DNA of 64,000 nt, taken from an uncultured Pseudomonadales bacterium. GTDB lineage: Bacteria; Patescibacteriota; Microgenomatia; UBA1400; PJMF01. Below are positions 8,791-44,901 of this stretch, in pieces. Both the position numbers and the translations under genes were made by a program. Location: the NCBI GenBank assembly GCA_964633875.1, contig CAZWKL010000006.1:19144-83143 (forward strand), given 5' to 3'. Position 1 is the stretch's first letter; each line of letters opens with the position of its first letter. The notes beneath the pieces are model-generated. The model was not told the DNA's origin and made no database searches. It was given only the letters and a program-made list of their open reading frames with translations.

Positions 8791-8837
8791 GCCTTCATTG
8801 TAACATTCATAGCCGCTTGCGGTATAATGGTCAAGAT

Positions 8838-21950: not shown

Positions 21951-22535
21951 TTAGCTCTCCGTCCCATACTCAGCTTGCCACAGCACCCGAAATTCTTCTC
22001 TGGCTCTAAATAAATCGGACTCCACAGCCTTACTAGTCCTGTCCAGCTCCCGGGCAATAGCAGCTACTTTTTTGCCTTCGACATACTTCATCACCAGCAG
22101 ATTTTTGTAGCCGCGGCGCATTTTATTGAGCACAAGCCTGACTTGCTGGGAAATTTCATGCGAATCATGGACCTCTCTACTTAACAACCACTCATGAAGC
22201 GGTAACGTTTCCAAGGTTTTCTTGGCGTAAATTTTGCGGTAGTAATCGGCAACTTCATGCCTGGCAATAGAGTTCATCCAGGTCCAAATACTCGAGTCAC
22301 CCCGGAAAAGTGGCAAGTGTTTCAGGCAATTAAGAAAAGTTTCCTGAACTATTTCCTCAGCGTCTTTAGGATTGGAAACTTTCACCAAAACCACCGCCAG
22401 CAGCCGGTCATAATATGAATTGAACCACTCCTGCACCGCCAGTTTTTCACCTGCTCGCAAACGTTCAAGCAGCTGACTGTCTTTTTTAGTAGCTTTGTTG
22501 GTAGTGGCGCCTGTAGCGCCAATATTCCTAACCAT
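21951..22535 (-). CDS. ECF-type RNA polymerase sigma factor (sigma-70 family regions 2 and 4)
   Basis: Region 2-like EEIVQETFLNCLKHLPLF...WTWMNSIARHEVADYY and region 4 HTH LLVMKYVEGKKVAAIARELDRTSKAVESDLFRAR. Confidence 0.75.
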   Translation of the reverse strand: MVRNIGATGATTNKATKKDSQLLERLRAGEKLAVQEWFNSYYDRLLAVVLVKVSNPKDAEEIVQETFLNCLKHLPLFRGDSSIWTWMNSIARHEVADYYRKIYAKKTLETLPLHEWLLSREVHDSHEISQQVRLVLNKMRRGYKNLLVMKYVEGKKVAAIARELDRTSKAVESDLFRAREEFRVLWQAEYGTES

Positions 22536-22580
22536 AGGTACTAGTATACCTCAACTGTGCTGTAGTATAATATTTTGGTG

Positions 22581-22943
22581 ATGTTGAATAAGCTCGTGCG
22601 TCCGATCTATGCCCAATGTGATCCAGGAAAAGGCAATGTCAATTTGGGTGATTGTTTGGTTTTGAGAGATGACAGAACTATTGCCGAGGTGTATTCCGAA
22701 CCCGCCTTCCTCATTAACCTTCTAGCTCAGAACATTTTCGCCATCGCCGGCGTGGTGTTGTTTTTTATGCTTTTGTTAGCAGGATTTAAATTTGTGGCCG
22801 GCGGCAAAAAGGGTGCCGAAGACGCCAAGAGTATTCTTACCACAGCGATTATCGGCTTCATTATCATGTTTACCGCCTACTGGATTGTGGTGTTGGTAGA
22901 AATTATTACTGGGATAAATATTCCTGTTGGACCCGCGGGATAG
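22581..22943 (+). CDS. VirB2/TrbC-like T4SS pilin-family protein (paralog 3 of 11)
   Basis: Two TM helices flanking GGKKGAEDAKSILTTAIIGFIIM. The ORF-track start 22575 is TTG; the ATG at 22581 lies 9 nt after TATAAT (22566-22571). Confidence 0.5.
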   Translation: MLNKLVRPIYAQCDPGKGNVNLGDCLVLRDDRTIAEVYSEPAFLINLLAQNIFAIAGVVLFFMLLLAGFKFVAGGKKGAEDAKSILTTAIIGFIIMFTAYWIVVLVEIITGINIPVGPAG

Positions 22944-22954
22944 GGATATAAGGC

Positions 22955-23374
22955 ATGAGAGCATCAATTACAACCAAACTACTTCTACTGCTTGCTGTTT
23001 TTGTCTTTTTATTGCCCATGGCAACACCGGCATTTTCTCAAAATTTAGGTCACATTTTCCCCCCACCAGGAGTCAATCAATATCAAGCAGAAGCTGGACT
23101 CACCCATGACCAACCAGCCCTAATCTTCTTTCTTTCAAGAATGATTAGGCTAATTACCGTCGTTGTCGGGCTGTGGGTAATTGTTAATATTACCATAGCC
23201 GCCTTTCACTATATTTCTGGCAGTGGTAGCGCGGAAGCTCACGCTAAAGTACGCAATTTATTAACAATGAGTGTGGCAGGGCTGCTCTTAATAATTGCTT
23301 CCTACACTATTGGCGGTATCCTGGGACTGATTTTCTTTGGGGACGCCACTTATATTTTGAATCCGACGATATAG
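22955..23374 (+). CDS. VirB2/TrbC-like T4SS pilin-family protein (paralog 4 of 11)
   Basis: Signal peptide; C-terminal GSGSAEAHAKVRNLLTMSVAGLLLIIASYTI ... LIFFGDATYILNPT. Confidence 0.5.
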   Translation: MRASITTKLLLLLAVFVFLLPMATPAFSQNLGHIFPPPGVNQYQAEAGLTHDQPALIFFLSRMIRLITVVVGLWVIVNITIAAFHYISGSGSAEAHAKVRNLLTMSVAGLLLIIASYTIGGILGLIFFGDATYILNPTI

Positions 23375-23388
23375 AATAGAAAAACTAA

Positions 23389-23955
23389 ATGATAAAAATA
23401 CTGATAAAACTAACTTTAAGTCTAATTATCCTCGCTGGAGTTATGTTTTCTGTTCCAGCTTATGCCTATGCCCAATGTTCACCAGCTACTGAAGGAGATT
23501 GTGTCAATGGATACATTTGTGTTTGTGGAGAAATTGAAGAGTCCGACGGATCAACGCAAACATATTGCTATCGTGACTCCGCACAATACTGTGGTTCAGA
23601 AAAAGGATTGCAGGTAATTGGACCTATTAGGGCCCCTGATGCGGTTGCTCGATTTAACATTATTAGTACTTCGCATGTTGGTTTGGTGCCATTCCTCTCG
23701 ATCATCATCCGCCTCATCACCATTGTCGCCGGCATCTTTACCATGTTGAATTTTGTGGCTGCTGGGGCCAAATACGTGTTTTCCATGGGCAATACTAACG
23801 CCAATGTTGAAGTGCGGGACAAGTTGCTCTTTAGCGTCATTGGCCTGCTGATTATTGTGGCCTCCTACACCATTGCTGCTTTATTCGGACTGATTTTCTT
23901 TGGGGACGCCACTTTTATCTTGAGGCCAACCTTTACTGGAGCTCTTGACTTATAA
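23389..23955 (+). CDS. VirB2/TrbC-like T4SS pilin-family protein (paralog 5 of 11)
   Basis: Signal peptide; Cys-rich N-domain; C-terminal tail ...LIFFGDATFILRPT nearly identical to the tail of paralog 4. Confidence 0.5.
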   Translation: MIKILIKLTLSLIILAGVMFSVPAYAYAQCSPATEGDCVNGYICVCGEIEESDGSTQTYCYRDSAQYCGSEKGLQVIGPIRAPDAVARFNIISTSHVGLVPFLSIIIRLITIVAGIFTMLNFVAAGAKYVFSMGNTNANVEVRDKLLFSVIGLLIIVASYTIAALFGLIFFGDATFILRPTFTGALDL

Positions 23956-23976
23956 AAATAGGAAATATCAGGTAAA

Positions 23977-24384
23977 ATGAAACAAAAGAAAGCGCCTATG
24001 CCTTTTTGGACACTGATCGCACAAACAGAACTCGGTAGATTTGAGCCTCCTACTGATAGCTTTAGTGAAGGCTCTGACACCACCGAGGGAGCCTTGAGCA
24101 ACTTGGAGCTAATTATTTCCAATTCCTTGGGAGTGATCACTGTTTTAGCTGGGGTCTTCTTTATTTTCTATTTCATTATGGGCGCGTTTCAAATTTTGTC
24201 CGCCGGCGGCGATTCCGGCAAAGTCCAAAGCGGCCAGCAAAGAATTACTCAGGCAGTACTTGGCTTGGTGATTTTGGTAGCTGCTTACGCCATTATTGGT
24301 TTGATTAGCACCGTGCTCGGCCTCAGCCTACTCAATCCTGCTCAAGTCATTCAAGAAAGCTTAATTCCAGGAGGAGGATCATGA
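23977..24384 (+). CDS. VirB2/TrbC-like T4SS pilin-family protein (paralog 6 of 11)
   Basis: SAGGDSGKVQSGQQRITQAVLGLVILVAAYAII between two TM helices. Confidence 0.5.
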   Translation: MKQKKAPMPFWTLIAQTELGRFEPPTDSFSEGSDTTEGALSNLELIISNSLGVITVLAGVFFIFYFIMGAFQILSAGGDSGKVQSGQQRITQAVLGLVILVAAYAIIGLISTVLGLSLLNPAQVIQESLIPGGGS

Positions 24385-24797
24385 ACTTAAAGAAAACCGC
24401 CGCCCAAATTACCCTCTCCTTTAGCACCATGTTAGCTAGTACTTCAGCTGCTCTGGCTCAGATTACCAATCCCGCCATCGGCAACTTAAGTGACACTGAA
24501 GAAGCCGAATCGGGCACTTTGTTCGTGCGGATTTTTATTCAGCTCTGGAACGTCATCATTACTGTTGGCGCGATCATTGTAATTTTCATGTTTTTGTGGG
24601 GAGCGATTGAGTGGATTACCGCGGGCGGTGATTCCGGTAAAATTCAGAGCGCCCAAAAGCGGCTTACCCATGCAGCCTTAGGTCTTTTTCTGCTGGTAAT
24701 GTCTTTTGCTATTATTGAATACATTAGTTACATCTTCTTTGATGGAGAATTTAATATTCTTAACTTAACCCTACCAACAGTAGGTTCGGGAGACTAA
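24381..24797 (+). CDS. VirB2/TrbC-like T4SS pilin-family protein (paralog 7 of 11)
   Basis: Signal peptide; WGAIEWITAGGDSGKIQSAQKRLTHAALGLFLLVMSF; overlaps the previous gene by 4 nt. Confidence 0.5.
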   Translation: MNLKKTAAQITLSFSTMLASTSAALAQITNPAIGNLSDTEEAESGTLFVRIFIQLWNVIITVGAIIVIFMFLWGAIEWITAGGDSGKIQSAQKRLTHAALGLFLLVMSFAIIEYISYIFFDGEFNILNLTLPTVGSGD

Positions 24798-24800
24798 ATT

Positions 24801-25307
24801 ATGTTTAAAAAGAAATTGCTAATAATTTTTACCGCTCTGGCTTTGACACTGACTTCGATCTCAGCGCTAATGATCTCTCCGGAGCCAATGCTGGCGGCCG
24901 ACGAGGCTGGCGCTGGCTTTGGTGGTGGAAGCCAGGATGAAAGCAACAAGAGTATTCAGCTCAATCTGGGTCAGGAAGCCATCGAAAAGGAACTTCCTGG
25001 CAGCGCCAGTTCCGAGGAAGGCAGCCAGACTGCTGGGTTTAGTTATTGGCTTGGTCGAGCCATGTCTATTATTTTAATTGTCGCTGCGCTGCTGGTTTTG
25101 GTCAATTTACTTATGGGCGCCATCAAGTGGATTACCGCGGGCGGTGATTCTGGTAAATTGTCTGAGGCACAAAAACAAATCACCAGCTCCATTATTGGTC
25201 TGATCGTGTTGGCAGCGGTAGTCGCCATCTTCCAGCTGTTGACGGATTTTTTACAGTTAGACTTTATTACTTTTACTAACTCTAGTCCGCAGACAGAGCT
25301 TGACTAA
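24801..25307 (+). CDS. VirB2/TrbC-like T4SS pilin-family protein (paralog 8 of 11)
   Basis: Signal peptide; MGAIKWITAGGDSGKLSEAQKQITSSIIGLIVLAAV. Confidence 0.5.
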   Translation: MFKKKLLIIFTALALTLTSISALMISPEPMLAADEAGAGFGGGSQDESNKSIQLNLGQEAIEKELPGSASSEEGSQTAGFSYWLGRAMSIILIVAALLVLVNLLMGAIKWITAGGDSGKLSEAQKQITSSIIGLIVLAAVVAIFQLLTDFLQLDFITFTNSSPQTELD

Positions 25308-25371
25308 GCACTTCAAGTACTAGTATAATTTTGGTATCGTCTGTATCTTGTAAAATTAACAAAAGGAGATT

Positions 25372-25773
25372 ATGACACAAAACCTTAAACGAATTGCTGT
25401 TGGCGCCGGAGCCTTAGCAACCTCAGCAACAGCTGTTTTTGCAGCAGATGAAATAAGTATTAGAACACCTACCGGATTTTTTGATAACATGGGAACCCTG
25501 ATCAGCGGCCTGCTGAACTTTGTGATAATCATCGCCGCTCTCCTGGTATTCATTTACCTACTGTGGGGAGGAATTGAATGGATCACCTCAGGTGGTGATA
25601 AAGGCAAAACCGAGAGCGCTCGGAATAAGATCACCTCTGCTATTATTGGGTTGATCGTCTTAGCCGCCGCCTGGGCGCTACTGACTATCATTCTCAACTT
25701 CCTTGGTTATGACAACCTCCAACAAGTGTTCAACTTAAACATTGAAGAAGCTACTAGCGGAAATCAGAATTAA
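25372..25773 (+). CDS. VirB2/TrbC-like T4SS pilin-family protein (paralog 9 of 11)
   Basis: Signal peptide; WGGIEWITSGGDKGKTESARNKITSAIIGLIVLAAAWALL. Own TATAAT (25324-25329) and RBS AGGAG (25364-25368); followed by an intrinsic terminator. Confidence 0.55.
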   Translation: MTQNLKRIAVGAGALATSATAVFAADEISIRTPTGFFDNMGTLISGLLNFVIIIAALLVFIYLLWGGIEWITSGGDKGKTESARNKITSAIIGLIVLAAAWALLTIILNFLGYDNLQQVFNLNIEEATSGNQN

Positions 25774-25795
25774 GAAGAACTAGTAATAGTTTCGC

Positions 25796-25825
25796 AAAAA
25801 CCCCCTTTTACTAGGGGGTTTTTGG
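25796..25825 (+). terminator. Rho-independent terminator after pilin paralog 9
   Basis: AAAAACCCCCT-tttact-AGGGGGTTTTT: 6-bp GC stem, 6-nt loop, T-run downstream and A-run upstream (potentially bidirectional). Confidence 0.6.
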
Positions 25826-25848
25826 TTAAAATAGGTTATAATAACTCC

Positions 25849-26409
25849 ATGAAACAAATGTTATTGCTACTTATTCTGGCGGCAGCCGTGGTATTTTTAG
25901 CTGGCAACGCTAACGCTGATAGTCCTGAAAATTTAGCCAGCAACCGCCTGTACACGATTGTGGATCAAGAAACCGGAGAAGTGGTGAGCACCACCTCCGC
26001 GGAAACTATTTACTATGCTACCACTTCTGCCTTAAGGGCCGATTCCACCTCTGTGCCTACAACTACTACGCCTAGACGAGGACTTTTTTACCCGATTGAC
26101 ATTATCATTCCACGGGGTTTCTTCGATAACATTTCTGAACTAATCAATGGCCTTCTCCGGCTCTTAATGATTGTTGCCGCTCTTTTGGTTTTTGTTTACC
26201 TGCTTTGGGGAGGGATAGAGTGGATTACTTCCGGCGGTGACAAAGGCAAAACCGAGAGCGCTCGGAATAAAATTACCTCTGCTATTATTGGTTTGATTAT
26301 TATGGCTGCCGCCTGGGCACTGCTGACTATCGTGTTGAATTTCCTGGGCTACGCCGGTTTGGAAGACGTGCTCAACCAAAACATCAATGAAGCCGTGTCA
26401 AGACAGTAG
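25849..26409 (+). CDS. VirB2/TrbC-like T4SS pilin-family protein (paralog 10 of 11)
   Basis: ORF-track 25822..26409 starts inside the terminator; the Met at 25849 begins signal peptide MKQMLLLLILAAAVVFLAG. The C-terminal 80 aa are about 85% identical to paralog 9. Confidence 0.55.
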   Translation: MKQMLLLLILAAAVVFLAGNANADSPENLASNRLYTIVDQETGEVVSTTSAETIYYATTSALRADSTSVPTTTTPRRGLFYPIDIIIPRGFFDNISELINGLLRLLMIVAALLVFVYLLWGGIEWITSGGDKGKTESARNKITSAIIGLIIMAAAWALLTIVLNFLGYAGLEDVLNQNINEAVSRQ

Positions 26410-26831
26410 TGTTATACTATAGCTATATGTTTAAGCGCCTTGCTTTCACTTTGTTCACATTTCTCACTGCCAGTGCGTTGCTACTAAGCGTGCCGGCTCA
26501 AGCCGCCGCCCAATCGCAGGTGTGGGATGGTGTCTGCGTAGAAGAAGGAGATGTCGCTACCATCCAGGGCCTAGAGTGCTTGATTGCTAACATTTTTGCC
26601 GTGATTATCACTCTGATTGGCTTTGCCGGCTTTGTGATGTTCATTATTGGTTCTTTTCGTTGGATGCTGTCAGGTGGCAGCAGTAAAGGCGTGGAAACCG
26701 CCCGCAACACTATGACTTACGCGGTGGTGGGATTGGTAGTAGCCCTCAGTGCTTTTATTATTCTGAACCTAATTGCCGACTTTACCGGAGTAGGAGTGAT
26801 TACTAAATTTTTCATCCCCAGGTCCAATTAA
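26409..26831 (+). CDS. VirB2/TrbC-like T4SS pilin-family protein (paralog 11 of 11)
   Basis: Signal peptide; IGSFRWMLSGGSSKGVETARNTMTYAVVGLVVALSAFIIL; start overlaps the previous stop. Confidence 0.5.
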   Translation: MLYYSYMFKRLAFTLFTFLTASALLLSVPAQAAAQSQVWDGVCVEEGDVATIQGLECLIANIFAVIITLIGFAGFVMFIIGSFRWMLSGGSSKGVETARNTMTYAVVGLVVALSAFIILNLIADFTGVGVITKFFIPRSN

Positions 26832-27069
26832 TTTATAAATTAGCAATAGAGTTCAAATACACCGGCGCATAAAAAAGACACACTATTGATTTTCTCTTAA
26901 TATGGTATGCAGTCATTTTCAATGTAAACCATATTAAGGCCAGACAAGGGAAGTTTGAGGGTCGCAATTGGCTTTCCAGTAAAGAGGCGCTGCAGCGGTA
27001 TGTCAAAAATAGAGAACGAATGAGGTAAGGGGTTGGTTCCACCCCACCAATACCTGATATAATTGGCTT

Positions 27070-30000
27070 GTGTCAAAACACAGAATTTTTCTTGCCAGCC
27101 TGTGGTTGTTTATCTGTGCTGCGGTAGTGAGCGCCGGGTTTTTGCCGGCGGCTGCCAAGGCTCAGGTGGTGGGATCACACTTGGGCGTGGGTGATATTGG
27201 CGGCCAGATCAATAATATTCAAATTCTGCAGCAAAATGGCGCCGGCAGCGGTTTTCCCGTTACGATGATGTTGAATATTAATATGGCTGGTCAGGATCAA
27301 CAGGCTATGCACAATCTGGCAGCAGCCGTGGAAAGCGCCGGGTTTCTGCCCATTGTCAGACTAACGCACGTCTGTTCTGCTTTTGAAAGCGGCGTCACCC
27401 CCAGCAATGCGGTGCAAAACGCCAAAAATGCCTTTGGATCCAGTGCGTTGATTGTTTACGGCAACGAAGTCAACAATCGCGAGGCAGAGTGTCCGAACTG
27501 GACCAAGTACGTTGCTGATTACAACAGCATCGCCGACAAAACCAACGTTTCTCCCGCGGCTCTAGATTATTACATGGGCAATCCTGCTTATACCGTAGAG
27601 GTCTTTTTTAATTCCACTCCCGGAGCCAGAGAAATCTATGAAAACTCAACCATCAATGCGGCCAACGCCTATGAATGCGTCGGCACCTCCGATCAAAACA
27701 CGATGGCGTGTGAGTCTCCCTGGGAAGCCAATACTATGGCAGTAGGCTACCAGGCTTACAGTGGGCAAATTTTTCTAACCGAGTTCTCTCTTTCTCCGGA
27801 AGGCCGGGTGCCCAACTCCCCAGACACCGACTTGCAAAAAGTCGCTCAGTTTATCCAGGAAAAAGCGGCTGACACCGGCGCCAGCCTGATCACTCCGCTG
27901 GTGCGCAACGTTTGTAACAACGAAGGCGAGTGGCTGTTGTATGTGAACGGACGCTTGTTTACCATTGTGGGCACTGATGTGACTGAGAATTGTGAGGGCC
28001 GGGCCGGGGTGGGTGAGGGCTATGATTTGAGTGATTTTCCCGACTATGGCTATAATCAGTCGTATTATTATTTACATCCAATTAGAGGTATTCACCCCGA
28101 CACCGATCCTGACGGCAGAAAGGTGTCTGTAACCCGAGCTGATCTGGCCAGCCAAGGCTATGAAGCTTACTGCGCGGCTGAGCCAACCACCATCAAGTTG
28201 GACGTCAACACCAGAGATCTTATCAATAGATTTTTAGCCAGTAATCCCACCGGTGTGAGTGCAACCAGAGACTCAACCTACGTGCTAGACTCCAGCAGCG
28301 GGCAATTCCCACTTTTTCGCGATACAACAGGAAAAAAATATCTTACTACCTCGATTGAAGAGTTTTTTGGCTTCAAAGATGTTTACACCGACGACGGCTA
28401 CTCGGTCATGGAACTCAATACCGCCCCCATCAATACTCTGCTTTCGCAAGAGCAAAAATGTATCCAGGGAGTGGACATTCTCCGAAATATTCAACTGATG
28501 TGTGAGCGGCTGGAGGATCCTCGTGCTAACTGCGCTCTCCTGGAAAACCAAATTCCCGGGACAAATTATAATGTAAGCACCCTTTTGGACGATGTAGCTA
28601 AAGTCATTCCTGGCTACAGAGCGGGCAAAATCGGCGAACAGTGCCGGATGCTCTTTTCAGACCAAATCCCCGAGTTTGCTATGGAAGATCCCGAGCTACC
28701 AGTTTTCAAAAAAGCCATCACCAACGTGCCACTCAACATTGACCGTTCTTTCCGCCTGGCGTTTTTGGTGGCCTCAATTGAACAGCGGCCACAAACCAGC
28801 GCTTTCAACTTTTTTTCTTTTTCAGAAGCTGCTCAACCAAAACATGAAGTGCTGATTGTGGCTTTCAAAATCCCTGATATTCTCACCAACAAAGGTGGCG
28901 GTGAAGCCTCCGGACACCAATTTTTTAATGATTCTGCCACTCTAACCAGAGATGCCTTGGTACCACAACAATTTAGAACGGCTTTTTCCGATCCTAATGA
29001 AGATGAAGTTGACAGCTGCCATGACCAAATTCAAGGAAACGACTTTACCAAATATGGTTTTGACCAGCAGAGTCTTAATCGCAAAATTTGTACCGGCATC
29101 AATGCGCACAATGCCTCGGTGCAAAATCCTGATAGTCCGATTTACTGCTTGAGTGGTAGCGGCGACACGCCAGAGGAGCTGGAGGGTTTGGAAGGATCAG
29201 CTGCTTGTAAAGATATTCTGGGTAAAGCCGTGGTGGACCTAATCAACGGCAATACACCCAGCTGCAACAACATGCAATCCGAGCCGGTTTTAGAAGTGCT
29301 GCAGGCAGCTAACATTATTCCGCCAGATTTGAACGACGGCTCGCGCCTCTTTAATCCTGGCTACGGTTTTGGCAATGACGTGCTCAACTACATTTTTACG
29401 CAAAATCTCACTCCTCAGCGTGATGAAAGCACTTTTACCTCAATTTTTAATATTGTTGGCAGCGCTTTTGATAATGCGGAAAACGAAACAGCGGCGGTGG
29501 ATTTTTTCCTGGTCTATCCGGTGGGCTATGAGCTGGACTCGGTGACTGAAGTGCTGAAAAATACTTTTTTTACTGTTCACCAGATTGCTGAACTCGAGGA
29601 AAGTACCAACCGCTCGCGCTTTGAGGCCAAAGGCTTTGCTTCCGGCTTGAGCGGTGCCACTTTCAGTCACACTTTTAATGAATTGCCTTCCAGCGGCAAC
29701 TGCCAGGAGTCTACTATCTTGCTTGAGGAAGACCCTCTTACAGGGCTGCCAATCAACCCTCCTCAGGTAATAACAGTCCTCAACTGTGAACAAACTTTCA
29801 ATATTTCGGTCAATGAAGAAGGTGCTGGGGGGCTGAGTGTGTTGGGTGCCAGGCTGGGTTTTTGGATGAGAAATATTCAACAAACTCTTAACGGTCATTT
29901 TAGCAACGCTTCCGCTTACATCGCTTCCTGCGCTACCACTGAGGAGTTTTTGCTGGGCCGGTGTGCTGGCCGGGCAGTGGCTTCGCCTCCAGGCTCAAAC

Positions 30001-30498
30001 TTGGGCGGTTCGGAAATAGTCAGCCCGCTTTGCGGCCGCGATTATCCCATCAAAGCCGATGACATCGTGCCGGATTACCATTCGCAAACCATTCTTAATC
30101 GCAGCAGCGCTGCTTATCGCACCCAAGTACCAACAGAACCCGATGTCGGTCGCGCCATGTACTACGCTGCCGGAGTGATGAACCGGGTACTGCAAAACCG
30201 CATTGCCTGGAAGCAAATTCCTCCTGGCGCTGTTTCTGACTGTGAAGGTGGCGATAGTAAGTACCGCGGCTGTGTGGCGCTCCTGCGGGCTGGCGATATC
30301 GGGCGGGAAGTTTATCTCAAAAGACCTGGCCAAAATGCTGAAGGTCCGTACTTGGTCATTGATGTAGCAGCAGAAAAAGATATTGCTTGCTTATTGGAAC
30401 GCAACTGGATAGTAGATGTAGACTGGGGTACGGCGCAAAGATGGAACATGAAAGGGCCGGTGGATGCGCAGATTTGCGAAACCGCCGCTTGTCCGTAG
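27070..30498 (+). CDS. large secreted Cys-containing protein of unknown function (1142 aa)
   Basis: GTG start 6 nt after an extended -10 TGATATAAT (27055-27063); N-terminal signal peptide; many Cys; no recognised catalytic motif. Confidence 0.45.
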   Translation: MSKHRIFLASLWLFICAAVVSAGFLPAAAKAQVVGSHLGVGDIGGQINNIQILQQNGAGSGFPVTMMLNINMAGQDQQAMHNLAAAVESAGFLPIVRLTHVCSAFESGVTPSNAVQNAKNAFGSSALIVYGNEVNNREAECPNWTKYVADYNSIADKTNVSPAALDYYMGNPAYTVEVFFNSTPGAREIYENSTINAANAYECVGTSDQNTMACESPWEANTMAVGYQAYSGQIFLTEFSLSPEGRVPNSPDTDLQKVAQFIQEKAADTGASLITPLVRNVCNNEGEWLLYVNGRLFTIVGTDVTENCEGRAGVGEGYDLSDFPDYGYNQSYYYLHPIRGIHPDTDPDGRKVSVTRADLASQGYEAYCAAEPTTIKLDVNTRDLINRFLASNPTGVSATRDSTYVLDSSSGQFPLFRDTTGKKYLTTSIEEFFGFKDVYTDDGYSVMELNTAPINTLLSQEQKCIQGVDILRNIQLMCERLEDPRANCALLENQIPGTNYNVSTLLDDVAKVIPGYRAGKIGEQCRMLFSDQIPEFAMEDPELPVFKKAITNVPLNIDRSFRLAFLVASIEQRPQTSAFNFFSFSEAAQPKHEVLIVAFKIPDILTNKGGGEASGHQFFNDSATLTRDALVPQQFRTAFSDPNEDEVDSCHDQIQGNDFTKYGFDQQSLNRKICTGINAHNASVQNPDSPIYCLSGSGDTPEELEGLEGSAACKDILGKAVVDLINGNTPSCNNMQSEPVLEVLQAANIIPPDLNDGSRLFNPGYGFGNDVLNYIFTQNLTPQRDESTFTSIFNIVGSAFDNAENETAAVDFFLVYPVGYELDSVTEVLKNTFFTVHQIAELEESTNRSRFEAKGFASGLSGATFSHTFNELPSSGNCQESTILLEEDPLTGLPINPPQVITVLNCEQTFNISVNEEGAGGLSVLGARLGFWMRNIQQTLNGHFSNASAYIASCATTEEFLLGRCAGRAVASPPGSNLGGSEIVSPLCGRDYPIKADDIVPDYHSQTILNRSSAAYRTQVPTEPDVGRAMYYAAGVMNRVLQNRIAWKQIPPGAVSDCEGGDSKYRGCVALLRAGDIGREVYLKRPGQNAEGPYLVIDVAAEKDIACLLERNWIVDVDWGTAQRWNMKGPVDAQICETAACP

Positions 30499-30506
30499 CC
30501 GGTGCG

Positions 30507-31487
30507 CTATTTTTTGCTGATCTCGCCGGGGGAATGATTGAGACCGCCTTTGGGCTTTCTGCCCTGCTTTTTCTTTTGCGGACCGTTTGGTCTTGATTCT
30601 GGTACCACCGGCTGCCCTTGTTTTTGCCGGCTTGGTTGGCGCATCACTTTCATTTCTGTTTCCGTTTGATCTGCCTTTTGCCAACCAGCAATTTGGTACT
30701 CTTTTACCGGAGCTGGTTGCTGACCCGCTGGTTGAGCCGGTTGGGGCTGCTCTTGAGGCAGAGCTTGCCTTTCGGCCCCGCTTCTCATCAAAAACGCCAC
30801 CGTTTCAAAAGTATCGGCGGTTACATCCGGTGATTGCAGACCGTTGGTGGCCTCTTCAATACCAGCCAACAAAAAGGTGGCCGCGGTTGGATCCACACCA
30901 AGCTGCAGATTTTTAATCAATCCGGCGGTGAGCTCGCTAATGACACCAGTGCTAGCACTCAGATTAATACTTCCCACCGTAGCCGGCATGGCGGTCAAAG
31001 CAACAGCCGGGGTGTTGCGGAAAAGCTCTTCATAACCAAAATAAAGTTGCTCGAGGTTTTCCAAATTGTAAATACCAATGAGAAAAATTAGGTCGGCCTC
31101 GGCGCCAGTATAAGAAAATTCCACGCTGTCGGTACTCAGTGGCTCCTGGCCGCGCTGAGGTTTGATGGTGAGATAAAACTTGTTGGTTTCTTCTCCAATA
31201 TGGTAGCTGACTTTATCCACCGCTTCCGGAGAGTAATCAAAACTAACCACCAAATTTTGGTTGCCCACTTCTATTCTGGTAATTTCAGCCACCTGCGTCA
31301 TTTCCTGAAGCTGCGGCTGCCTGGGCGAGTAAAGAGTGGCGTCTTTGCCGGCCTGCCTCAAAGCCTGCTGCAGAGCAAAAGCGCTGGCCAGCTCGTCTTT
31401 GCTAGGATTGGCGGCGTACATGATTAAAATGGTACGGGCATTTTCCAGCAGGGCTTGAATTTGAGGGAGTTGTTCGCGGTCTGTCAT
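30507..31487 (-). CDS. DHH-phosphoesterase-like protein with degenerate active-site motifs and Q/P-rich basic C-terminal tail
   Basis: The N-terminus ILIMYAANPSKDELASAFAL aligns to the NrnA-type motif ILITGHxNPDGDALGS, but the His/Asp positions are substituted. The DHH position reads GIY. Judged from memory of the family. Confidence 0.3.
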   Translation of the reverse strand: MTDREQLPQIQALLENARTILIMYAANPSKDELASAFALQQALRQAGKDATLYSPRQPQLQEMTQVAEITRIEVGNQNLVVSFDYSPEAVDKVSYHIGEETNKFYLTIKPQRGQEPLSTDSVEFSYTGAEADLIFLIGIYNLENLEQLYFGYEELFRNTPAVALTAMPATVGSINLSASTGVISELTAGLIKNLQLGVDPTAATFLLAGIEEATNGLQSPDVTADTFETVAFLMRSGAERQALPQEQPQPAQPAGQQPAPVKEYQIAGWQKADQTETEMKVMRQPSRQKQGQPVVPESRPNGPQKKKQGRKPKGGLNHSPGEISKK

Positions 31488-31604: not shown

Positions 31605-33464
31605 ATGGCAAAGCGTATGCTTCTGCTAGCTGTTGTTTTTATTGCCCTGTTTTCCCTGGGAAGTGTTGTGGTATCCGCACAGGATGAAAGTGAAGAAACT
31701 TTACCAATAACTGAAGACGTGGGCTTTACCACTGATGTCGCGCTCATCAAGCAGTACACTGAAGCAACTAAGAGGTGTGATTCTCCGTCTCTGGAGTGTC
31801 TAGTGTATTACGTTGTTAATTATACCGCCATTGAAATCACCAACAGCATCGCGCCAATTGCGGGTGTGGAAGATCCAAATGATAGCGCCGCGCCAATTAA
31901 CCAACTGCCAAATTCAGAATATCGCGGCCCAGTTATTGCCGGCAGAAAAGGCGTAGTGCCGGGACTCAGCTATTTAATTGTCCAAATGTACGGCAATCCC
32001 CCTGCCACCACAGACATGTATGTTGCAGATGTACTTAATTCCGCCGGAGTGGCGGTAGCGCCACCCGCTTATGCTCAGGGCCTGGGTTTTGTAGCCCTCA
32101 ATCCGGTGCTTGAATTATGGAAAACTTTTCGCAATGTTGCTTACATTTTTTATGTGCTGATGTTTGTGGTGATTGGTTTTATGATCATGCTCAGGCAAAA
32201 GGTGGGCCAACACGCCATCACTGCTCAACAAGCTATTCCCAGCATTATTGTCAGCTTAATTTTTGTGACCTTTTCCTATGCCATTGCCGGATTTTTAATT
32301 GACCTGATGTATTTGAGCATGTTTTTGATTGTCGGTATCTTTGAGAGTGTGACCGAAATAGGCTCAGAGGTAATTGGTTACAACATCTTTCAACTTGGTA
32401 AGGAATTTATTAACCAAGGTTATTTCAGCGGGAAAGACGCCGCTTATAACATGGTTCCTGAAATGATTCAGGCAGCACTTAATAGTGGCAATTTTGTTGG
32501 CCAAAGTGCTGTTAGTTGGGTGTCAGGCATAACTGTGGGTTTGATTGTCGCGGTGGCGGTGCTAATCGCCACCTTCAAGCTCTTTTTTGAGCTGCTTAAA
32601 TCCTACGCTACCATTGTGTTGATGGTGGTAACCGCGCCCATTCAATTAATGATTGGCGCCATTCCCGGCAAAAATACCGTGAGCTCTTGGATAAAAAGCC
32701 TGGTTGGCAATCTGTCGGCATTCCCGGTAGTTCTCATGGGGTTCATTATGTTTAGAATTTTTGTGGACGGAGCTATGGGCACCCAGTCGGGTGGATTTAT
32801 GCCGCCATTCTTGCTCAGCAATGGCACCGCAAACTCCATCACTGCTCTGATGGGCTTGGCTATCTTGCTGGCAATTCCCGAAATTGTGAAAAAAGTTAAA
32901 GATTCTCTGGGAGCTGGAGGAGGGTTTGGGGAGATGATTGCCCAAGAAGCCATGGGTAAAACTAAACAAGCATTGCCACTGGGTGGAAGACTTGGCACCG
33001 GCGTATGGATGGGTCCTGGAGGGGCAATCATAAGCGGTGGCGCAGCTGGTCTTTCTAGAGGGGGAAGTCAGGCAGCTCAAGTAATACGTAATGTTTGGAG
33101 TGGTCAATCAAGACCTTCTGCATTGCTTTCAACTGTTCCAAGATTTTTGGGTGGTTTTGGATCTGGTGCACTTTTGGGGGATAGTTTCGGAAGCACTCAA
33201 AGAGATGCTCAAGGGCGCGAAATACGTAGAGGCGGGGTTATAAGAGGATTTAGAACTGGAATAAATTTGGGAGCGAGAGCTACTAATAGGGTGGCAACTT
33301 CTGCTGGAGCCAACCAACCGGATTGGCTAAGTCCAGTTACAAATCTATATGATCGAGCCGCTTTAACCGAAGAGCAAAGAGCTGAAATCAGAGAAAATCA
33401 GCGTTGGGAAGACAGAATGGATAGAACGGGCTGGATCAGGAGAAGAAGTCGCGGGGAAGTGTAA
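31605..33464 (+). CDS. polytopic membrane protein, candidate VirB6/TrbL-like T4SS channel component
   Basis: Signal peptide, ~130-aa ectodomain, six or more TM helices and a Gly-rich C-terminal tail. Assignment is by topology and context only. ATG lies 6 nt after TGTTATAAT (31590-31598). Confidence 0.4.
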   Translation: MAKRMLLLAVVFIALFSLGSVVVSAQDESEETLPITEDVGFTTDVALIKQYTEATKRCDSPSLECLVYYVVNYTAIEITNSIAPIAGVEDPNDSAAPINQLPNSEYRGPVIAGRKGVVPGLSYLIVQMYGNPPATTDMYVADVLNSAGVAVAPPAYAQGLGFVALNPVLELWKTFRNVAYIFYVLMFVVIGFMIMLRQKVGQHAITAQQAIPSIIVSLIFVTFSYAIAGFLIDLMYLSMFLIVGIFESVTEIGSEVIGYNIFQLGKEFINQGYFSGKDAAYNMVPEMIQAALNSGNFVGQSAVSWVSGITVGLIVAVAVLIATFKLFFELLKSYATIVLMVVTAPIQLMIGAIPGKNTVSSWIKSLVGNLSAFPVVLMGFIMFRIFVDGAMGTQSGGFMPPFLLSNGTANSITALMGLAILLAIPEIVKKVKDSLGAGGGFGEMIAQEAMGKTKQALPLGGRLGTGVWMGPGGAIISGGAAGLSRGGSQAAQVIRNVWSGQSRPSALLSTVPRFLGGFGSGALLGDSFGSTQRDAQGREIRRGGVIRGFRTGINLGARATNRVATSAGANQPDWLSPVTNLYDRAALTEEQRAEIRENQRWEDRMDRTGWIRRRSRGEV

Positions 33465-36628: not shown

Positions 36629-36719
36629 AAAGAATTATACCACCACTTGAGAAATTACGCACATAAGCAATAGCTTTTTATGCCAACCGCGCCAACCGTG
36701 TTTGCGGTATAATTGCCTC

Positions 36720-39700
36720 ATGGCTAATGCGGACGCACCTGCTCTACCCTTAACCAAACTCGAGAATGTAAAATACTTCAAGACCGACGTTTCTCCAGAG
36801 GATTTTAAGGAATTTCTCACCACCCTCCCTCAAGCCATTTCCGGCAGTGGCGAACTGCAAAAAGGGGTGAAGGTTTTTGTACCAGGCAACGAAAAATTTA
36901 ACAGCAGAAAACTTGAGGCCGCTGACGATTCTGATTTGGTTTCAGAAGAACACAGTGCTGAAGCGCTTTATTATTCCGATATCGTCCGGCTCATTTCCGA
37001 CTCGATGAGATGGCTCATGGAAAATGGCACTCATGAAGAAATTGGGAACTTAAGAGACCGGTTTGACCACCTAAACAGAAATCCCAACGCCATCTTAACC
37101 CAGTGGGGAGGGGTTAAGGCTGGTGGCGAAAGCGCTGTTTCCGAAATAGAAATTCAGAAATTTAGAGGTGACATTCCGGAGCTGATCAACTATGTTTTGT
37201 ATTTTGCCAAAAAAGAGTTTAGCGACCTGGCTACGGAGCCATCGGAAAAAGATGGGGCGGCAGCGGCTCCAGGGAAACCGGCTAAAGGCGATGATCAGGC
37301 TGTCGTTGGGGGAAAGCCAGAGGCAGACGGAGGGGCTGATCAAGCTGGCTCAGCAGAGCCGGATGAGCAACGCCCTCAACCTCCCAGTCCGGAACAAGAA
37401 GAAGCCCACAAGAAAAAAATCCTCTACGAAGCCACCTGGATCTACAACCAGGCGCTGCACGATTTTTTCATCACTCACGGCATTGATTACGACTATCTCG
37501 AAACTCACCCAGAGTTGCGCGATCTAATTCTCTCCGAAACTGTCAAAATCCTGGAAAGCCGCTCCGAGCGCGAGCTGATGATTCTTTTCGCCAACCCAGG
37601 CAGAAGGTTGGAAATACTCAGAGAGCTTTACATCAACCTGGCCCAATCGCCGCAACTTGCCGTTGGCTTGCAAAATTTTTACGACACCTACGCGCAAGCG
37701 CTACCCGAGGAGGCTCGCCAGGAATTTCTGGCTAGCTTGTCCCGCTCTGAAAACGTTCTTTCCCAGGCCATTCAAGGCAAAATGGTTTCCAACGATTACC
37801 AACTGCGCCAACAAGTCGCGGCAGTTTTGGGCACCGACAGCCCCACCTTGATTGGCGTGGGTTCATCGGAGTTCACCCAAATTATGGGCTCGATTCAGAT
37901 TAATATTGATGCGCTCCTAATCGGTCAGGGTGTTGATTTCCTGATAGTTAGCTCTGATGGAAACGTCGAAAAGACTAGCGAAAATCCCCACAACGCCATT
38001 TGGCTGATTCAAAAAATGAGCGATGACCATTTGCTGTTGATGCTCGGTGTTCCTCCCGATATCCGTCTTTCCGCGGAAGCAGTAGAGCGGTTGAGAAAAA
38101 TCGTCATCAATTACGCCAGAATGAGGGCGATTTATCTGGCTGAGCGCGCGGAAAATCTGGCGATTGCCGAGGGAATCAATCCGCTGAATGAGGCAGATGC
38201 TAATGCTATCGCCGCCAATGACACGGTCACTGCCAAGCGAGCACTACTAGCGCCTCATCAAGATACGGCTGGATTAATCAAGGCAGAAGAAGACTCGGGA
38301 AATGGCGGCGAAGTCGTTTATGGAGCTTTAACCCAAAATATTAAACAGCTTGAGGCCAAACGGCAAGCTCAATGGCACTCACTTTCCAAGGAAGAACAAG
38401 AGCTCATCCTGGTATTTTTGGGCAAAGAAATTGGGGCAGAGTATTACGAAGTCCCTTTTGAAATCGGGCTGTTTAGACTGCAAGCGCTGATAGCTGAAGC
38501 TGAAAAAACCGCGGTTTCACAGGCAGAACTGCTCAAATACCAGGCAACCTCACAAGCGATGATGAGTGAGGCTTTGTACGCCTTTGCCTACGAACAAGAA
38601 ATTGCTGCTAGGCAGGAGTTTCTGCGCCAGGAAATTTTAGGAGAGTACTTCGCCGCCGTTGATGAAGCAGAGCTGGCTGCCATGGCTGAAGAACTTGACT
38701 ACGAGAATGAGGCGCAACTCTATGAAGAAAGTCTGAGTAATGTTGTGCGCGCTCATGAAGGTGCGGGAGAGCGAGCTGAGGCAGGAGCAGCGGGCGGGCG
38801 TTTCGGCAGGTTGGGAAGAATCGGCGATCGTTTTAGAAACCGGTTTGCAAAAGAAGGCCGCTTTTCTCCAAAACAAAAGTTGCTTGGTGCTATTAAAAAA
38901 ACCGGAGCTAGAAAACTGGGCAGTGCGGCGGCTCAAAAACTAGGTGGTTTGATCGGTGGCCCAGTGGGCGCGGCGCTTGCCAAAGCGCTAACAGGAAAAA
39001 ACAGAAAGTGGGTGGGTGGCGCTCTGGCTGGAGCCGGGTTGTTGGCCTTAAAAGGCCTTGCCGCGATGTTGCAGGGCGGTAAAGCCTTGCTGATTGGCTT
39101 GGGAGCTGGCGGCGCTACTGGGGGAGCGCTGTTGTTGTTGGGTTTAACCGGGCCGGTTGGAGCGGTGATCCTTGGTGTTGGTGCGGGTTTAGCTGCCGCT
39201 GGCGGGTATAGTTTATTGAGCGGAGCTGGAACCGCAGAAGGAGCGGCCGGTCTTGGCGGCGGTGGCTTGATTGGAGGAGCGGGCGGAGTTCCGCCTGCCG
39301 CTTACACCGCTATGCCAGCAGAAGCTGTAAGTGGCGCGGAGGCCACAACTGGCGGCGCGGCGGCGGCCGCTATCACCACAACTACCGCTACAGCCGCCGG
39401 CGCCGCCAGTTGGACTACAGTCGCTAGCTTCCCCACTGCGGTCTTAATTCCCATTTTAAGCCTAGCGCTGACAGCAGTAGCCAGCCTCATCGTCATCCTC
39501 ATCATCCAAGGCTCCTTCCTCATCACCCTGCCGCCGTCTCTTAGTAGCAGAACTTACACCAGCAACTTGAGCGGTTTTGAGGGCTGTTGGCCCACCACCG
39601 GCAGAATAACTTCATATCGCACCTACATGATCGGTGGTGGTGGTAGCAACCATGCCACTGTGGGTGCTGGTAAGTACTTACATGGCTACGAGGGTCCGGG

Positions 39701-40940
39701 TATTGCCTTGGACATTGGCGCCGGAGGCAATTCTGAGGCTGAGGGCGGCTCTAATCCGCCGGTTTTCTCTCCTTTTTCGGGGACGGCCACTTTTTATCCT
39801 GAAGGGACCGGAGTGTATTGTGCCAGCTGCGCTCATAAATATCCCTACGGTAATTACGTGGTGGTAGACACGGGTGATTTTGCTCTGATTTTTGCTCATC
39901 TACTGCATTTTCCGGACCCAAACGTTCAATACCCCATTGTTGGCACCAATCAGATGACCTCTATCAGTTGGACGCAAAAAACGGAAAACGTTCAAATTAC
40001 GGCGGGCAATCTTCTAGGACTGATGAACAGCACCGGCAACTCCACCGGCAATCATCTTCACTATGAAGTAGTGGGTGGTGGTGTGGATATTATTGATCTG
40101 GTTCCGCTAACAGACGCAGAAAAAGCTGAGGCTAAAGCAGATGAATACACAATTTTTGGCATGCGAGTCAATTCACAAGAGTGTTCCCGTGCAAATGTTG
40201 ATGAAGAAGAAGGCATTTCTGGCTACATCGCTATTGGCCCTCAGAATCCCGACAACTTAGTGGTAACTCCTTCCAGCATGTTCCAAAGTCCGGTTCATCC
40301 TTGCACTTGGTTTGATCAAAATCAAAACTTGGCCGTGGCAATTAATGCCAATTATTACAATAGCTCGTCTGAGCCAATTGGCCCTGCCGGCAGTGATCCG
40401 GTTAGATATCTAGCCAATGCCAATGACAGATCTTCAGCCTACATGTCGGAGACAATGCGCTATCTTGGGGTGACTACCGGCGGCGCCTTGCAGTTTGGAC
40501 CAGTGCCTCCCGCTTGGTACAACAATCCCAACAAGCCTTTTAATATCGACAGCTTGACTAAAGCCATTACCGGAACACTTTCCACCCATCCCGATGATAA
40601 CCAATTTAGAAATCGGGTGGCCCTTGGTTTTGGGAGCGTTAATGGCCAGTGCACTGATTACAGCGGACCAGCCTTTATTGTTGGCGGCATGCGGGCCGCT
40701 TCTTATTCTGATTTAGCAAAAATGATGACCGCTTGTGGCGCTGAAGAGTTCATCTTCCTGGATGGCGGCGGCTCCGCTTCTTTCTGCTCTGAAAATCTCA
40801 ATATTACCGGCAGTAGAGTCATGCCGGTGAGCGTGGGCTTGATTCAAGCCGAAGTAGAAACCTACAGCTCGAACGAAGAAGAAGAGGGCGTAGGTATTCA
40901 ACCTCCTCCCGGCGGTTTCCCTGGGCCACAACCAATTTAG
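36720..40940 (+). CDS. giant envelope hydrolase: N-terminal helical region, Gly/Ala-rich TM segment, M23 (LytM) metallopeptidase domain, C-terminal phosphodiester glycosidase-like domain
   Basis: M23 motifs HxxxD...GNSTGNHLHYEV; C-terminal FIFLDGGGSASF resembles the LDGGGS motif of phosphodiester glycosidase (DUF2233-like). The ORF-track start 36702 is a TTG overlapping TATAAT (36708-36713); the ATG at 36720 is preferred. Confidence 0.55.
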   Translation: MANADAPALPLTKLENVKYFKTDVSPEDFKEFLTTLPQAISGSGELQKGVKVFVPGNEKFNSRKLEAADDSDLVSEEHSAEALYYSDIVRLISDSMRWLMENGTHEEIGNLRDRFDHLNRNPNAILTQWGGVKAGGESAVSEIEIQKFRGDIPELINYVLYFAKKEFSDLATEPSEKDGAAAAPGKPAKGDDQAVVGGKPEADGGADQAGSAEPDEQRPQPPSPEQEEAHKKKILYEATWIYNQALHDFFITHGIDYDYLETHPELRDLILSETVKILESRSERELMILFANPGRRLEILRELYINLAQSPQLAVGLQNFYDTYAQALPEEARQEFLASLSRSENVLSQAIQGKMVSNDYQLRQQVAAVLGTDSPTLIGVGSSEFTQIMGSIQINIDALLIGQGVDFLIVSSDGNVEKTSENPHNAIWLIQKMSDDHLLLMLGVPPDIRLSAEAVERLRKIVINYARMRAIYLAERAENLAIAEGINPLNEADANAIAANDTVTAKRALLAPHQDTAGLIKAEEDSGNGGEVVYGALTQNIKQLEAKRQAQWHSLSKEEQELILVFLGKEIGAEYYEVPFEIGLFRLQALIAEAEKTAVSQAELLKYQATSQAMMSEALYAFAYEQEIAARQEFLRQEILGEYFAAVDEAELAAMAEELDYENEAQLYEESLSNVVRAHEGAGERAEAGAAGGRFGRLGRIGDRFRNRFAKEGRFSPKQKLLGAIKKTGARKLGSAAAQKLGGLIGGPVGAALAKALTGKNRKWVGGALAGAGLLALKGLAAMLQGGKALLIGLGAGGATGGALLLLGLTGPVGAVILGVGAGLAAAGGYSLLSGAGTAEGAAGLGGGGLIGGAGGVPPAAYTAMPAEAVSGAEATTGGAAAAAITTTTATAAGAASWTTVASFPTAVLIPILSLALTAVASLIVILIIQGSFLITLPPSLSSRTYTSNLSGFEGCWPTTGRITSYRTYMIGGGGSNHATVGAGKYLHGYEGPGIALDIGAGGNSEAEGGSNPPVFSPFSGTATFYPEGTGVYCASCAHKYPYGNYVVVDTGDFALIFAHLLHFPDPNVQYPIVGTNQMTSISWTQKTENVQITAGNLLGLMNSTGNSTGNHLHYEVVGGGVDIIDLVPLTDAEKAEAKADEYTIFGMRVNSQECSRANVDEEEGISGYIAIGPQNPDNLVVTPSSMFQSPVHPCTWFDQNQNLAVAINANYYNSSSEPIGPAGSDPVRYLANANDRSSAYMSETMRYLGVTTGGALQFGPVPPAWYNNPNKPFNIDSLTKAITGTLSTHPDDNQFRNRVALGFGSVNGQCTDYSGPAFIVGGMRAASYSDLAKMMTACGAEEFIFLDGGGSASFCSENLNITGSRVMPVSVGLIQAEVETYSSNEEEEGVGIQPPPGGFPGPQPI

Positions 40941-44807: not shown

Positions 44808-44901
44808 ACCCCAAGTCCGGGTCTCAGGTTTGGGCAGAAGCAAACTTGGCTTTTAAGGCCGGTCTTTATCAGTCCGTGCAATTAAAGTACAATGTCAATT
44901 G

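Follow-up and report, generated by a model that had tools for sequence, protein, structure and literature searches.

A predicted secreted, three-module glycosidase encoded beside a type IV secretion pilin array in a Microgenomates genome

What is the role of a large exported protein, matching no known sequence family, whose gene immediately follows an array of type IV secretion system (T4SS) pilin genes? This question is raised by a 1142-codon open reading frame (ORF), here called the target, in a 64,000-nucleotide stretch (the window) of contig CAZWKL010000006.1, which is deposited as an uncultured Pseudomonadales bacterium and placed in the Microgenomatia by GTDB. A first-pass annotation made from the nucleotide sequence had described the product as a secreted, cysteine-containing orphan and proposed that it is a pilus-tip adhesin or a substrate of the T4SS-like system. 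Our analysis points elsewhere: the target is probably, though not securely, a Sec-secreted, disulfide-rich envelope glycosidase composed of three modules, and a fixed component of the Microgenomates T4SS/pilin cluster.

Architecture of the exported protein

The length and GTG start given for the ORF in the first pass were confirmed; an in-frame stop codon lies upstream, and the GTG that follows it is the earliest possible start (Table 1). By inspection, the N-terminus (MSKHRIFLASLWLFICAAVVSAGFLPAAAKA, followed by Q after the cleavage site) has a basic n-region, a hydrophobic h-region, and an A-x-A site. Equivalent n-, h-, and c-regions with A-x-A sites were seen in the homologues, and signal peptides were recognized in the same way in 43 related loci, supporting the view that the protein is secreted. 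Cysteines are indeed plentiful, with 26 of the 27 located in the mature protein and many of them near-invariant across relatives. The public gene call for this protein, P0001, begins at a TTG 24 codons downstream of the GTG, which would remove the signal peptide, and its start is probably wrong.

The target is no orphan. A word-indexed search returned 64 full-length homologues of 1075-1495 residues with 26-100% identity, the named ones coming from metagenome-assembled genomes (MAGs) of Woesebacteria, Pacebacteria, or Microgenomates. HMMER, run exhaustively over 1.84 billion cluster representatives, found 501 relatives, 102 of them below 1e-30, ranging from ~800 to 1960 residues and, where named, all from Patescibacteria/Microgenomates MAGs. 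The pattern of matches divides the protein into three parts: residues ~30-310, shared by part of the family; residues ~310-975, found in nearly all large relatives; and residues ~1015-1135, which are also seen in numerous small proteins and as the C-terminal end of further large ones. Among 164 collected proteins that have the middle part, or core, the N-terminal module is of the target type in 72, of a second type in 64, and of a third type in 9, while ~15 consist of a signal peptide and the core alone.

We modeled the full-length protein with AlphaFold2 from the 64-sequence alignment, which gave a mean predicted local distance difference test score (pLDDT) of 83.4 and a confident structure at residues 30-970. 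The N-terminal module forms a (beta/alpha)8, or triosephosphate isomerase (TIM), barrel. Foldseek searches of the PDB with the full model listed TIM barrels only, the best being the glycoside hydrolase (GH) family 79 heparanase 7pr9 (E 1.8e-4), and GH30, GH128, and GH1 enzymes were also among the matches. Against viral structures in BFVD, the top matches were phage glycosyl hydrolases and GH5-domain proteins.

In clan GH-A, the acid/base Glu lies in an N-E pair after strand 4 of the barrel, and strand 7 ends with the nucleophile Glu. With strands numbered from the DSSP string of the model, G131-N132-E133 follows the fourth strand (residues 127-130) and T237-E238 lies within the seventh (residues 233-241), each at least 90% conserved. 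The target therefore shares with clan GH-A (GH5 cellulase/mannanase, GH79, GH30, GH128) both the barrel and the N-E and E positions, which in the target are ~105 residues apart. Because of this placement and the conservation of the N-E and T-E pairs, we read the N-terminal module, which resembles retaining enzymes of this kind, as a divergent and probably active glycoside hydrolase. It differs from the clan in having no Pfam Cellulase (PF00150) match and is thus not GH5 by sequence. GH5 does occur elsewhere in the family: PF00150 matches were obtained for relatives with a different N-terminal module in this place, of which P0069, one of the 64 of the second type, passes the cut-off, P0061 carries GH5 as an additional module, and a profile of distant relatives (A5) gave only weak matches to GH5 mannanases in the PDB, derived from their different N-terminal module.

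No part of the family is more widespread than the core, which is also the best-matched stretch in most of its distant members. The model of the core is confident and of mixed alpha/beta structure, its sequence carries a striking AFKIPDIxTNKGG motif, and R417, S428, E430, C478, C488, P817, and C965 are invariant. The fold of the core could not be assigned, because the full-model fold searches listed TIM-barrel matches only.

The C-terminal module was poorly modeled in the full-length run because a minority of the aligned sequences have it, and it was modeled separately with 23 small homologues (alignment A3). Nearly all top Foldseek matches of this domain model in the PDB are double-psi beta-barrels (DPBBs), led by a papaya barwin-like protein (4jp6, E 6.9e-4) and including kiwellins, a Streptomyces expansin (9ms5), designed DPBBs, and VCP/NSF N-domains, with target-normalized TM-scores of up to 0.68. 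D1098 and D1118 are invariant in the family of this module, and E1091, D1076, and D1116 are near-invariant (at least 90%). With the DPBB superfamily (RlpA, MltA, EXLX1, barwin, kiwellin), it shares the fold, a G-x-A-x-Y-Y first strand, and conserved acids, but it forms a family of its own: no Pfam model, DPBB_1 (PF03330) and 3D included, matches it in the target or in 14 other carriers, and the A3 profile found only spurious HisF matches among PDB sequences.

A profile search placed at least 297 members in this DPBB family, none with a protein name, and cluster entries for carriers of the domain read only 'hypothetical protein'; stand-alone members with a named source are mostly from Caldilineaceae/Chloroflexota. 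Small secreted proteins that have no Pfam model and are abundant (P0161-P0304; L008) show 40-50% identity to the cassette of the target. The affinity to Caldilineaceae/Chloroflexota could reflect a horizontal origin of the cassette or offer a clue to the identity of a host.

Linkage to pilins and exchange of the C-terminal tail

The target lies directly downstream of a pilin array, as the first-pass annotation had noted; the array comprises nine VirB2-like genes. Three of four array genes scanned with Pfam pass the T4SS_pilin (PF18895) cut-off, the fourth, at 23389-23952, has no match, and the remaining five were called pilin-like from their translations. The first pass had staked its proposal on this linkage recurring in related genomes, and it does. 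A GTDB scan of one genome per species identified 47 target loci (L011-L057). Same-strand, pilin-like ORFs lie upstream in 45 of the 45 loci that have upstream sequence, ending no more than ~125 bp from the target ORF in 43 of them, and a partner gene, of 326 codons in the window, is immediately downstream in 40 of the 40 loci with sufficient downstream sequence. The labels of these loci are mostly of Patescibacteria type (Patescibacteria group, Pacebacteria, Paceibacterota, Woesebacteria, Microgenomates), with many bearing the generic 'uncultured Pseudomonadales' and two labeled Methylococcaceae and Limisphaerales. In five related loci fetched for comparison (L001, L003-L006), the order is pilins, target, a gene of ~320-365 codons on the opposite strand, and a gene of ~560-650 codons on the same strand; most continue with a gene of ~1030-1500 codons on the opposite strand and a giant gene matching Peptidase_M23 (M23). 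Within the window, the PrgI/VirB3-like and VirB4 genes of the T4SS are 12-14 kb downstream of the target.

This arrangement bears on the idea that the protein is a nutritional or scavenging exo-enzyme that feeds an auxotrophic cell and happens to be co-located with T4SS genes. Sec secretion and a promoter separate from the pilin operon would suit such an enzyme, as would the GH-like barrel with its phage depolymerase-type GH5 matches and the extra GH5 or EEP phosphoesterase modules of some relatives. However, 45 species-level genomes keep the synteny with the pilins and two partner genes without exception, fusions to pilin domains occur, and the same DPBB tail is found on an unrelated protein at the matching cluster position (see below), and we consider a scavenging enzyme quite unlikely.

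In contrast to its constant surroundings, the C-terminal tail of the protein varies. We classified 159 tails that follow the core: 49 are of an 'ESG' type (ALAMWGEESGF / SITESGG) defined by motif only, 43 are SLT_3 (PF18896), recognized with a local profile built from a seed, 21 are DPBBs of the target type, recognized by fold search, 18 are of an 'EIEGSPY...GPLQI' type, again defined by motif only, and 2 are T4SS pilin domains with Pfam support, leaving 26 others to which no type was given. Pfam scans of relatives found SLT_3 at the C-terminal position in 13 of 36 and 5 of 38 proteins and SLT in 5 of 38; these tails carry the catalytic E-S motif. On a neighbor-joining tree of the core (159 sequences, 555 columns), tail type changes at least 54 times, compared to a minimum possible of 5. 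Exchange is visible even among the nearer relatives of the target, where P0002, P0003, and P0004 (87-54% identity) have DPBB tails, P0005 (55%) has an 'ESG' tail, and P0006, P0008, and P0009 (54-49%) have SLT_3 tails. Since the same body can end in either a DPBB or a lysozyme-like domain, we infer that the DPBB may serve an equivalent, glycan-strand-directed function.

One relative of 1959 residues, P0111, has an Exo_endo_phos domain (EEP nuclease/phosphatase, PF03372, E 2.3e-18) between the core and a DPBB tail; non-glycosidase enzymatic modules have therefore also been grafted onto the family scaffold.

Frequent exchange of the tail also bears on whether the protein is a housekeeping autolysin in the manner of SpoIID, RlpA, or M23 enzymes, one that serves the cell's own growth or division and has no specific tie to secretion. 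SpoIID-like and M23-like proteins (the latter by sub-threshold Pfam matches) are encoded nearby, and muralytic-type tails are present in the family. Yet a core division enzyme would not usually change its tail at least 54 times among 159 relatives, the family is confined to Microgenomates-type genomes and always found beside pilins, and some members are fused to pilin domains, all of which makes an autolysin very unlikely.

A conserved N-terminal region followed by a highly variable C-terminal enzymatic domain is, in turn, the classic layout of polymorphic toxins, and at least five tail types sit on the conserved body of this family. Under this explanation, the protein would be an effector sent through the T4SS into a competitor or host, with a cognate immunity protein encoded alongside. 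Bacteria-killing T4SSs of Xanthomonas do deliver peptidoglycan hydrolases. However, the cleavable Sec signal peptide would export the protein independently of the T4SS, which argues against a classical translocated substrate, one of the two roles suggested in the first pass. The 326-codon partner gene is orthologous across loci with four different target tail types, its product being 32-43% identical whatever the tail, and no adjacent immunity gene co-varies with the tails. The invariance of the partner genes with tail type argues against a toxin-immunity pair, and we consider a toxin extremely unlikely. The downstream genes had been considered as immunity genes, and this idea was rejected given their constancy across tail types.

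In two relatives, P0042 (L004, 10001-13231) and P0169, a T4SS pilin domain that has two transmembrane helices stands in place of the tail, so that the enzyme body is in effect the ectodomain of a pilin. The P0042 fusion sits in a 532-kb contig. These fusions point to a physical association of the family with pilins. A different combination was seen in P0194 (L009, 10001-13570), a 1189-residue protein of another Candidate Phyla Radiation (CPR) lineage that ends in the same DPBB cassette and whose first ~1070 residues are not detectably homologous to the target. It occupies a target-like, post-pilin slot in the order SpoIID, pilins, P0194, a 339-codon gene, M23, PrgI, TraC-like, VirB4.

Several results weigh against reading the target as an envelope glycosidase. 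Single-sequence searches of Pfam (even at E <= 10), NCBIfam, and PDB sequences were empty; the first-pass statement that the protein has no recognizable motif is understandable on this account, and it holds at that level of search, while folds could be assigned for two of the three modules. The core, more than half of the protein, has no match in Pfam, PHROG, or PDB sequences and no structural match among those listed. The Foldseek E-values given above for the barrel and the C-terminal module are modest even for the best matches, and old yellow enzyme (OYE) reductases and aldolases score nearly as well as glycosidases. Profile searches of PDB sequences with the family alignment (A2) returned nothing meaningful and no glycosidase, and the N-terminal module has no significant profile likeness to the GH5-like N-terminal modules of relatives (hhalign probability 6%). 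Comparison of the DPBB family with RlpA gave hhalign probabilities of 0.2% (E. coli RlpA) and 4.5% (114-sequence alignment), neither significant, although the low-confidence alignment is topologically sensible and places the near-invariant E1091-G-P opposite D-R-G-P of RlpA. Among the lysozyme-like tails, only SLT_3/SLT have Pfam support. Searches of the PDB with profiles of the 'ESG' and 'EIEGS' tails gave no relevant match, and when eight such proteins were scanned with Pfam, the one match was to GH73 Glucosaminidase, below threshold; because neither search brought confirmation, their assignment as lysozyme-like is motif-based.

Finally, barwin, kiwellin, and expansin, the closest folds of the DPBB module, include non-catalytic binders. 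This last point also favors an alternative close to the pilus-tip adhesin of the first-pass annotation, in which the barrel and the DPBB are both catalytically dead, and the protein attaches the pilus or cell to a host surface glycan as a pilus-associated adhesin or lectin. The fixed place after the pilin array, the fusion of N-terminal module and core to a pilin domain in P0042 and P0169, and a richness in disulfides that is common to many surface proteins are in keeping with such a binder. On the other hand, conservation of the N-E/T-E acid pair at 90% or more is hard to explain if the protein only binds, SLT_3/SLT domains with a catalytic E-S motif are among the alternative tails, and the model and fold searches revealed a TIM barrel, a mixed alpha/beta core, and a DPBB, with no immunoglobulin (Ig) fold, beta-solenoid, or other typical adhesin repeat. 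An adhesin or lectin therefore seems unlikely, and we continue to favor an envelope glycosidase.

Start site, spacer and neighboring genes

Table 1. Positions in the window of the target, its modules and control elements, and neighboring genes.
Feature	Position	Strand	Remarks
Coding sequence of the secreted three-module protein (target)	27070..30498	+	1142 residues, GTG start, probably leaderless; 64 full-length homologues
Sec-type signal peptide, residues 1-31	27070..27162	+	predicted cleavage between AKA and Q
(beta/alpha)8 TIM barrel, residues ~33-310, glycoside-hydrolase-like	27166..27999	+	AlphaFold2 pLDDT mostly >90
Candidate catalytic residues E133, E238	27466-27468, 27781-27783	+	at least 90% conserved
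Conserved core, residues ~320-970	28027..29979	+	most widespread part of the family; 164 collected proteins
DPBB module, residues ~1022-1137	30133..30480	+	domain model pLDDT 87.5
Extended -10 element TGaTATAAT	27055..27063	+	ends 6 nt before the GTG
Intergenic spacer, 238 bp	26832..27069	+	~200 bp of lineage-specific extra sequence
Local hairpin, 12-bp stem	26895..26939	+	11-bp perfect inverted repeat at 26896-26938
Nine VirB2-like T4SS pilin genes	22575..26831	+	directly upstream of the target
Convergent partner gene, 326 residues	30507..31487	-	32-43% identical orthologues in L001, L003, L004, L005
Second downstream gene, 619 residues	31605..33464	+	39-45% identical orthologues in all four loci compared; TATAAT-N6-ATG
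Giant protein with sub-threshold Pfam matches	36702..40940	+	Peptidase_M23, NAGPA
PrgI/VirB3-like gene	42195-43460	+	Pfam
435-residue protein in T4SS core block	43500-44807	+	unassigned
VirB4-type ATPase	44899-46965	+	Pfam
dnaA, dnaN	47116, 49035		after the T4SS core genes
Genes with leaderless geometry	684-3026, 5397-6584, 17368-18561, 21951-22535, 30507-31487, 31605-33464, 36720	-, -, +, -, -, +, +	

The first-pass annotation had proposed that the target is transcribed without a leader from its GTG. The geometry TATAAT-N6-GTG is kept in L006, L001, L003, and L004, whose proteins are 29-87% identical. We scanned the GTDB loci for TATAAT with at most one mismatch, followed after 6 or 7 bases by an in-frame start with a signal peptide, and found this arrangement in 43 of 45 loci compared to 0-1 of 45 at internal control offsets. 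The 43 starts deduced in this way comprise 34 GTG and 9 ATG, a striking bias towards leaderless mRNAs with a 5'-GUG that is kept across 22-87% protein identity. Judged from these sequences, it is well supported that transcription would begin at or within one base of the GTG and yield a leaderless mRNA.

The same geometry, with TATAAT, TACAAT, or TATACT 6-7 nt before the start and no Shine-Dalgarno sequence, is seen at many operon-leading genes of the window (Table 1), and this genome thus seems to make habitual use of leaderless mRNAs; the operon-internal genes 24381 and 25372 do have GGAGG-like sites. The longest-ORF TTG starts of 36702-40940 and 8817-9725 enclose a TATAAT box within the ORF extension (TTGCGGTATAAT...), and 36702-40940 probably starts in truth at ATG 36720, which the box precedes by 6 nt. 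An extracytoplasmic function (ECF)-type sigma factor gene (21951-22535, - strand), divergent from the first pilin gene and kept in L001, L003, and L006, is a candidate regulator of the cluster. The promoter of the target itself, by contrast, resembles a housekeeping -10 box.

The spacer between the last pilin gene and the target has exactly the length stated in the first pass. Its description there as structured did not hold for the whole, which has a minimum free energy (MFE) z of -0.05 relative to shuffled sequences, and applies to one local hairpin only. This hairpin folds with a z of -4.2 (0 of 200 shuffles equally stable), is single-copy in the window where 0 copies are expected by chance, and is not followed by a T-run. 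It lies within ~200 bp of intergenic DNA that is missing from the closest relative, L006 (87% identical), in which the gap between pilin and target is 39 bp; the gap is 22 bp in L001 and 43 bp in L003. Spacer-like DNA was not found elsewhere in the window or in the fetched loci. The hairpin might act as an operator, or it might be left over from an insertion.

Paralogues of the target were not found within the window, and tRNA and Rfam scans of the window were empty. No signal peptide was seen in the 326-residue partner and no Pfam match was obtained for it; the protein ends in a long, low-complexity tail rich in Lys, Gln, and Pro. The Pfam matches of the giant protein downstream fall just below threshold, at 26.3 against a cut-off of 28.7 bits and 23 against 25, and an M23-matching gene is kept at the corresponding position in L001 and L004. 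Within the pilin array, 25372-25773 and 25822-26409 share 77.5% nucleotide identity over 218 nt encoding the C-terminal pilin domain, while their N-terminal parts are unrelated, as if one gene had recently been duplicated in tandem or converted by the other. Upstream of the array, a SpoIID-like gene (15576-17291, - strand) is divergent from a gene for a 397-residue protein (17368-18561, + strand) that ends in a T4SS pilin domain by a sub-threshold Pfam match. L004, L005, L006, and L009 likewise have a SpoIID gene with one or several pilin genes after it, and the first pilin is of similarly large size (359-366 residues) in L004 and L006. This recurrence suggests that the pair is a second conserved wall-enzyme/pilin unit of the system.

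Proposed role and relation to known systems

The T4SS of Patescibacteria descends from monoderm conjugation systems, includes arrays of VirB2-like pilins that are especially abundant in Microgenomatia, and is clustered near dnaA, but a recognizable VirB1 is absent from most of its clusters (PMC12102498). A cultured saccharibacterium, the one lineage tested, cannot grow epibiotically without its T4SS genes and pilins (PMC10633639).

We infer that the target could play a VirB1/PrgK-like role. After export, it would stay at the cell surface near the pilus or T4SS, where the conserved core may mediate docking. The TIM barrel would cut a polysaccharide locally, and the DPBB tail would cut, or bind, peptidoglycan strands. 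Such local cutting of glycans could let the pilus or channel pass a cell wall.

A T4SS-associated wall hydrolase is a known kind of protein. Like VirB1 (Agrobacterium), PrgK (pCF10), TraG (pIP501), and CwlT (ICEBs1), the target is encoded in a T4SS cluster and carries an export signal; like the enzymes of monoderm systems, it is multi-domain; many of its relatives carry SLT_3/SLT; and a local opening of the wall is the role proposed for it. The target differs in having no SLT, CHAP, NlpC/P60, or M23 domain, its muralytic candidate being the DPBB, and thus lacks the SLT domain with catalytic Glu (PF01464/PF18896) expected of a VirB1-type enzyme. It also adds a GH-like barrel and a 650-residue core, is fixed beside the pilin array rather than virB4, and has exchanged its tail often.

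Phage tail lysins and depolymerases, as well as polymorphic toxins, resemble the target in joining a conserved delivery or anchoring part to interchangeable enzymatic heads, and in pairing a polysaccharide-cutting module with a wall-cutting one. Unlike these, the target is chromosomal, near the replication origin, with no phage genes around it and no PHROG match, and unlike the toxins it has no co-varying immunity gene.

Whose wall would be cut? The conserved synteny and the analogy with VirB1 are compatible with the cell's own wall. The phage-depolymerase-like barrel, the Chloroflexota affinity of the DPBB, and the exchange of tails lean towards the wall of a host, and rapid tail swapping in particular favors it. 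In the most specific version of this idea, the target would be the host-wall-breaching 'warhead' of the T4SS pilus, mounted on the surface or the pilus: the barrel would clear host surface polysaccharide, the exchangeable tail (DPBB, SLT_3, or another type) would be matched to the chemistry of the host wall, with the DPBB borrowed from Chloroflexota (Caldilineaceae, as candidate hosts), and the core would be a new pilin-docking fold. We regard this version as possible but tentative, with the balance leaning against it as a whole.

In the literature searched, we found no description of a protein that combines a barrel, a core, and a swappable tail, of the Pfam-less DPBB, of the pilin fusions, or of the fixed place after the pilins. 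The analysis also defines three sequence families outside Pfam (the divergent GH-like barrel, the large core, and the DPBB cassette), and for CPR bacteria it adds a clear case of conserved genes with leaderless GUG initiation. Tail exchange, the pilin fusions, and the Chloroflexota affinity offer handles on the attack of host walls and possibly on the identity of hosts. Being linked to pilins, exported, and made of enzyme-like modules, this family is a candidate for the missing VirB1-type wall-opening function in Microgenomatia.

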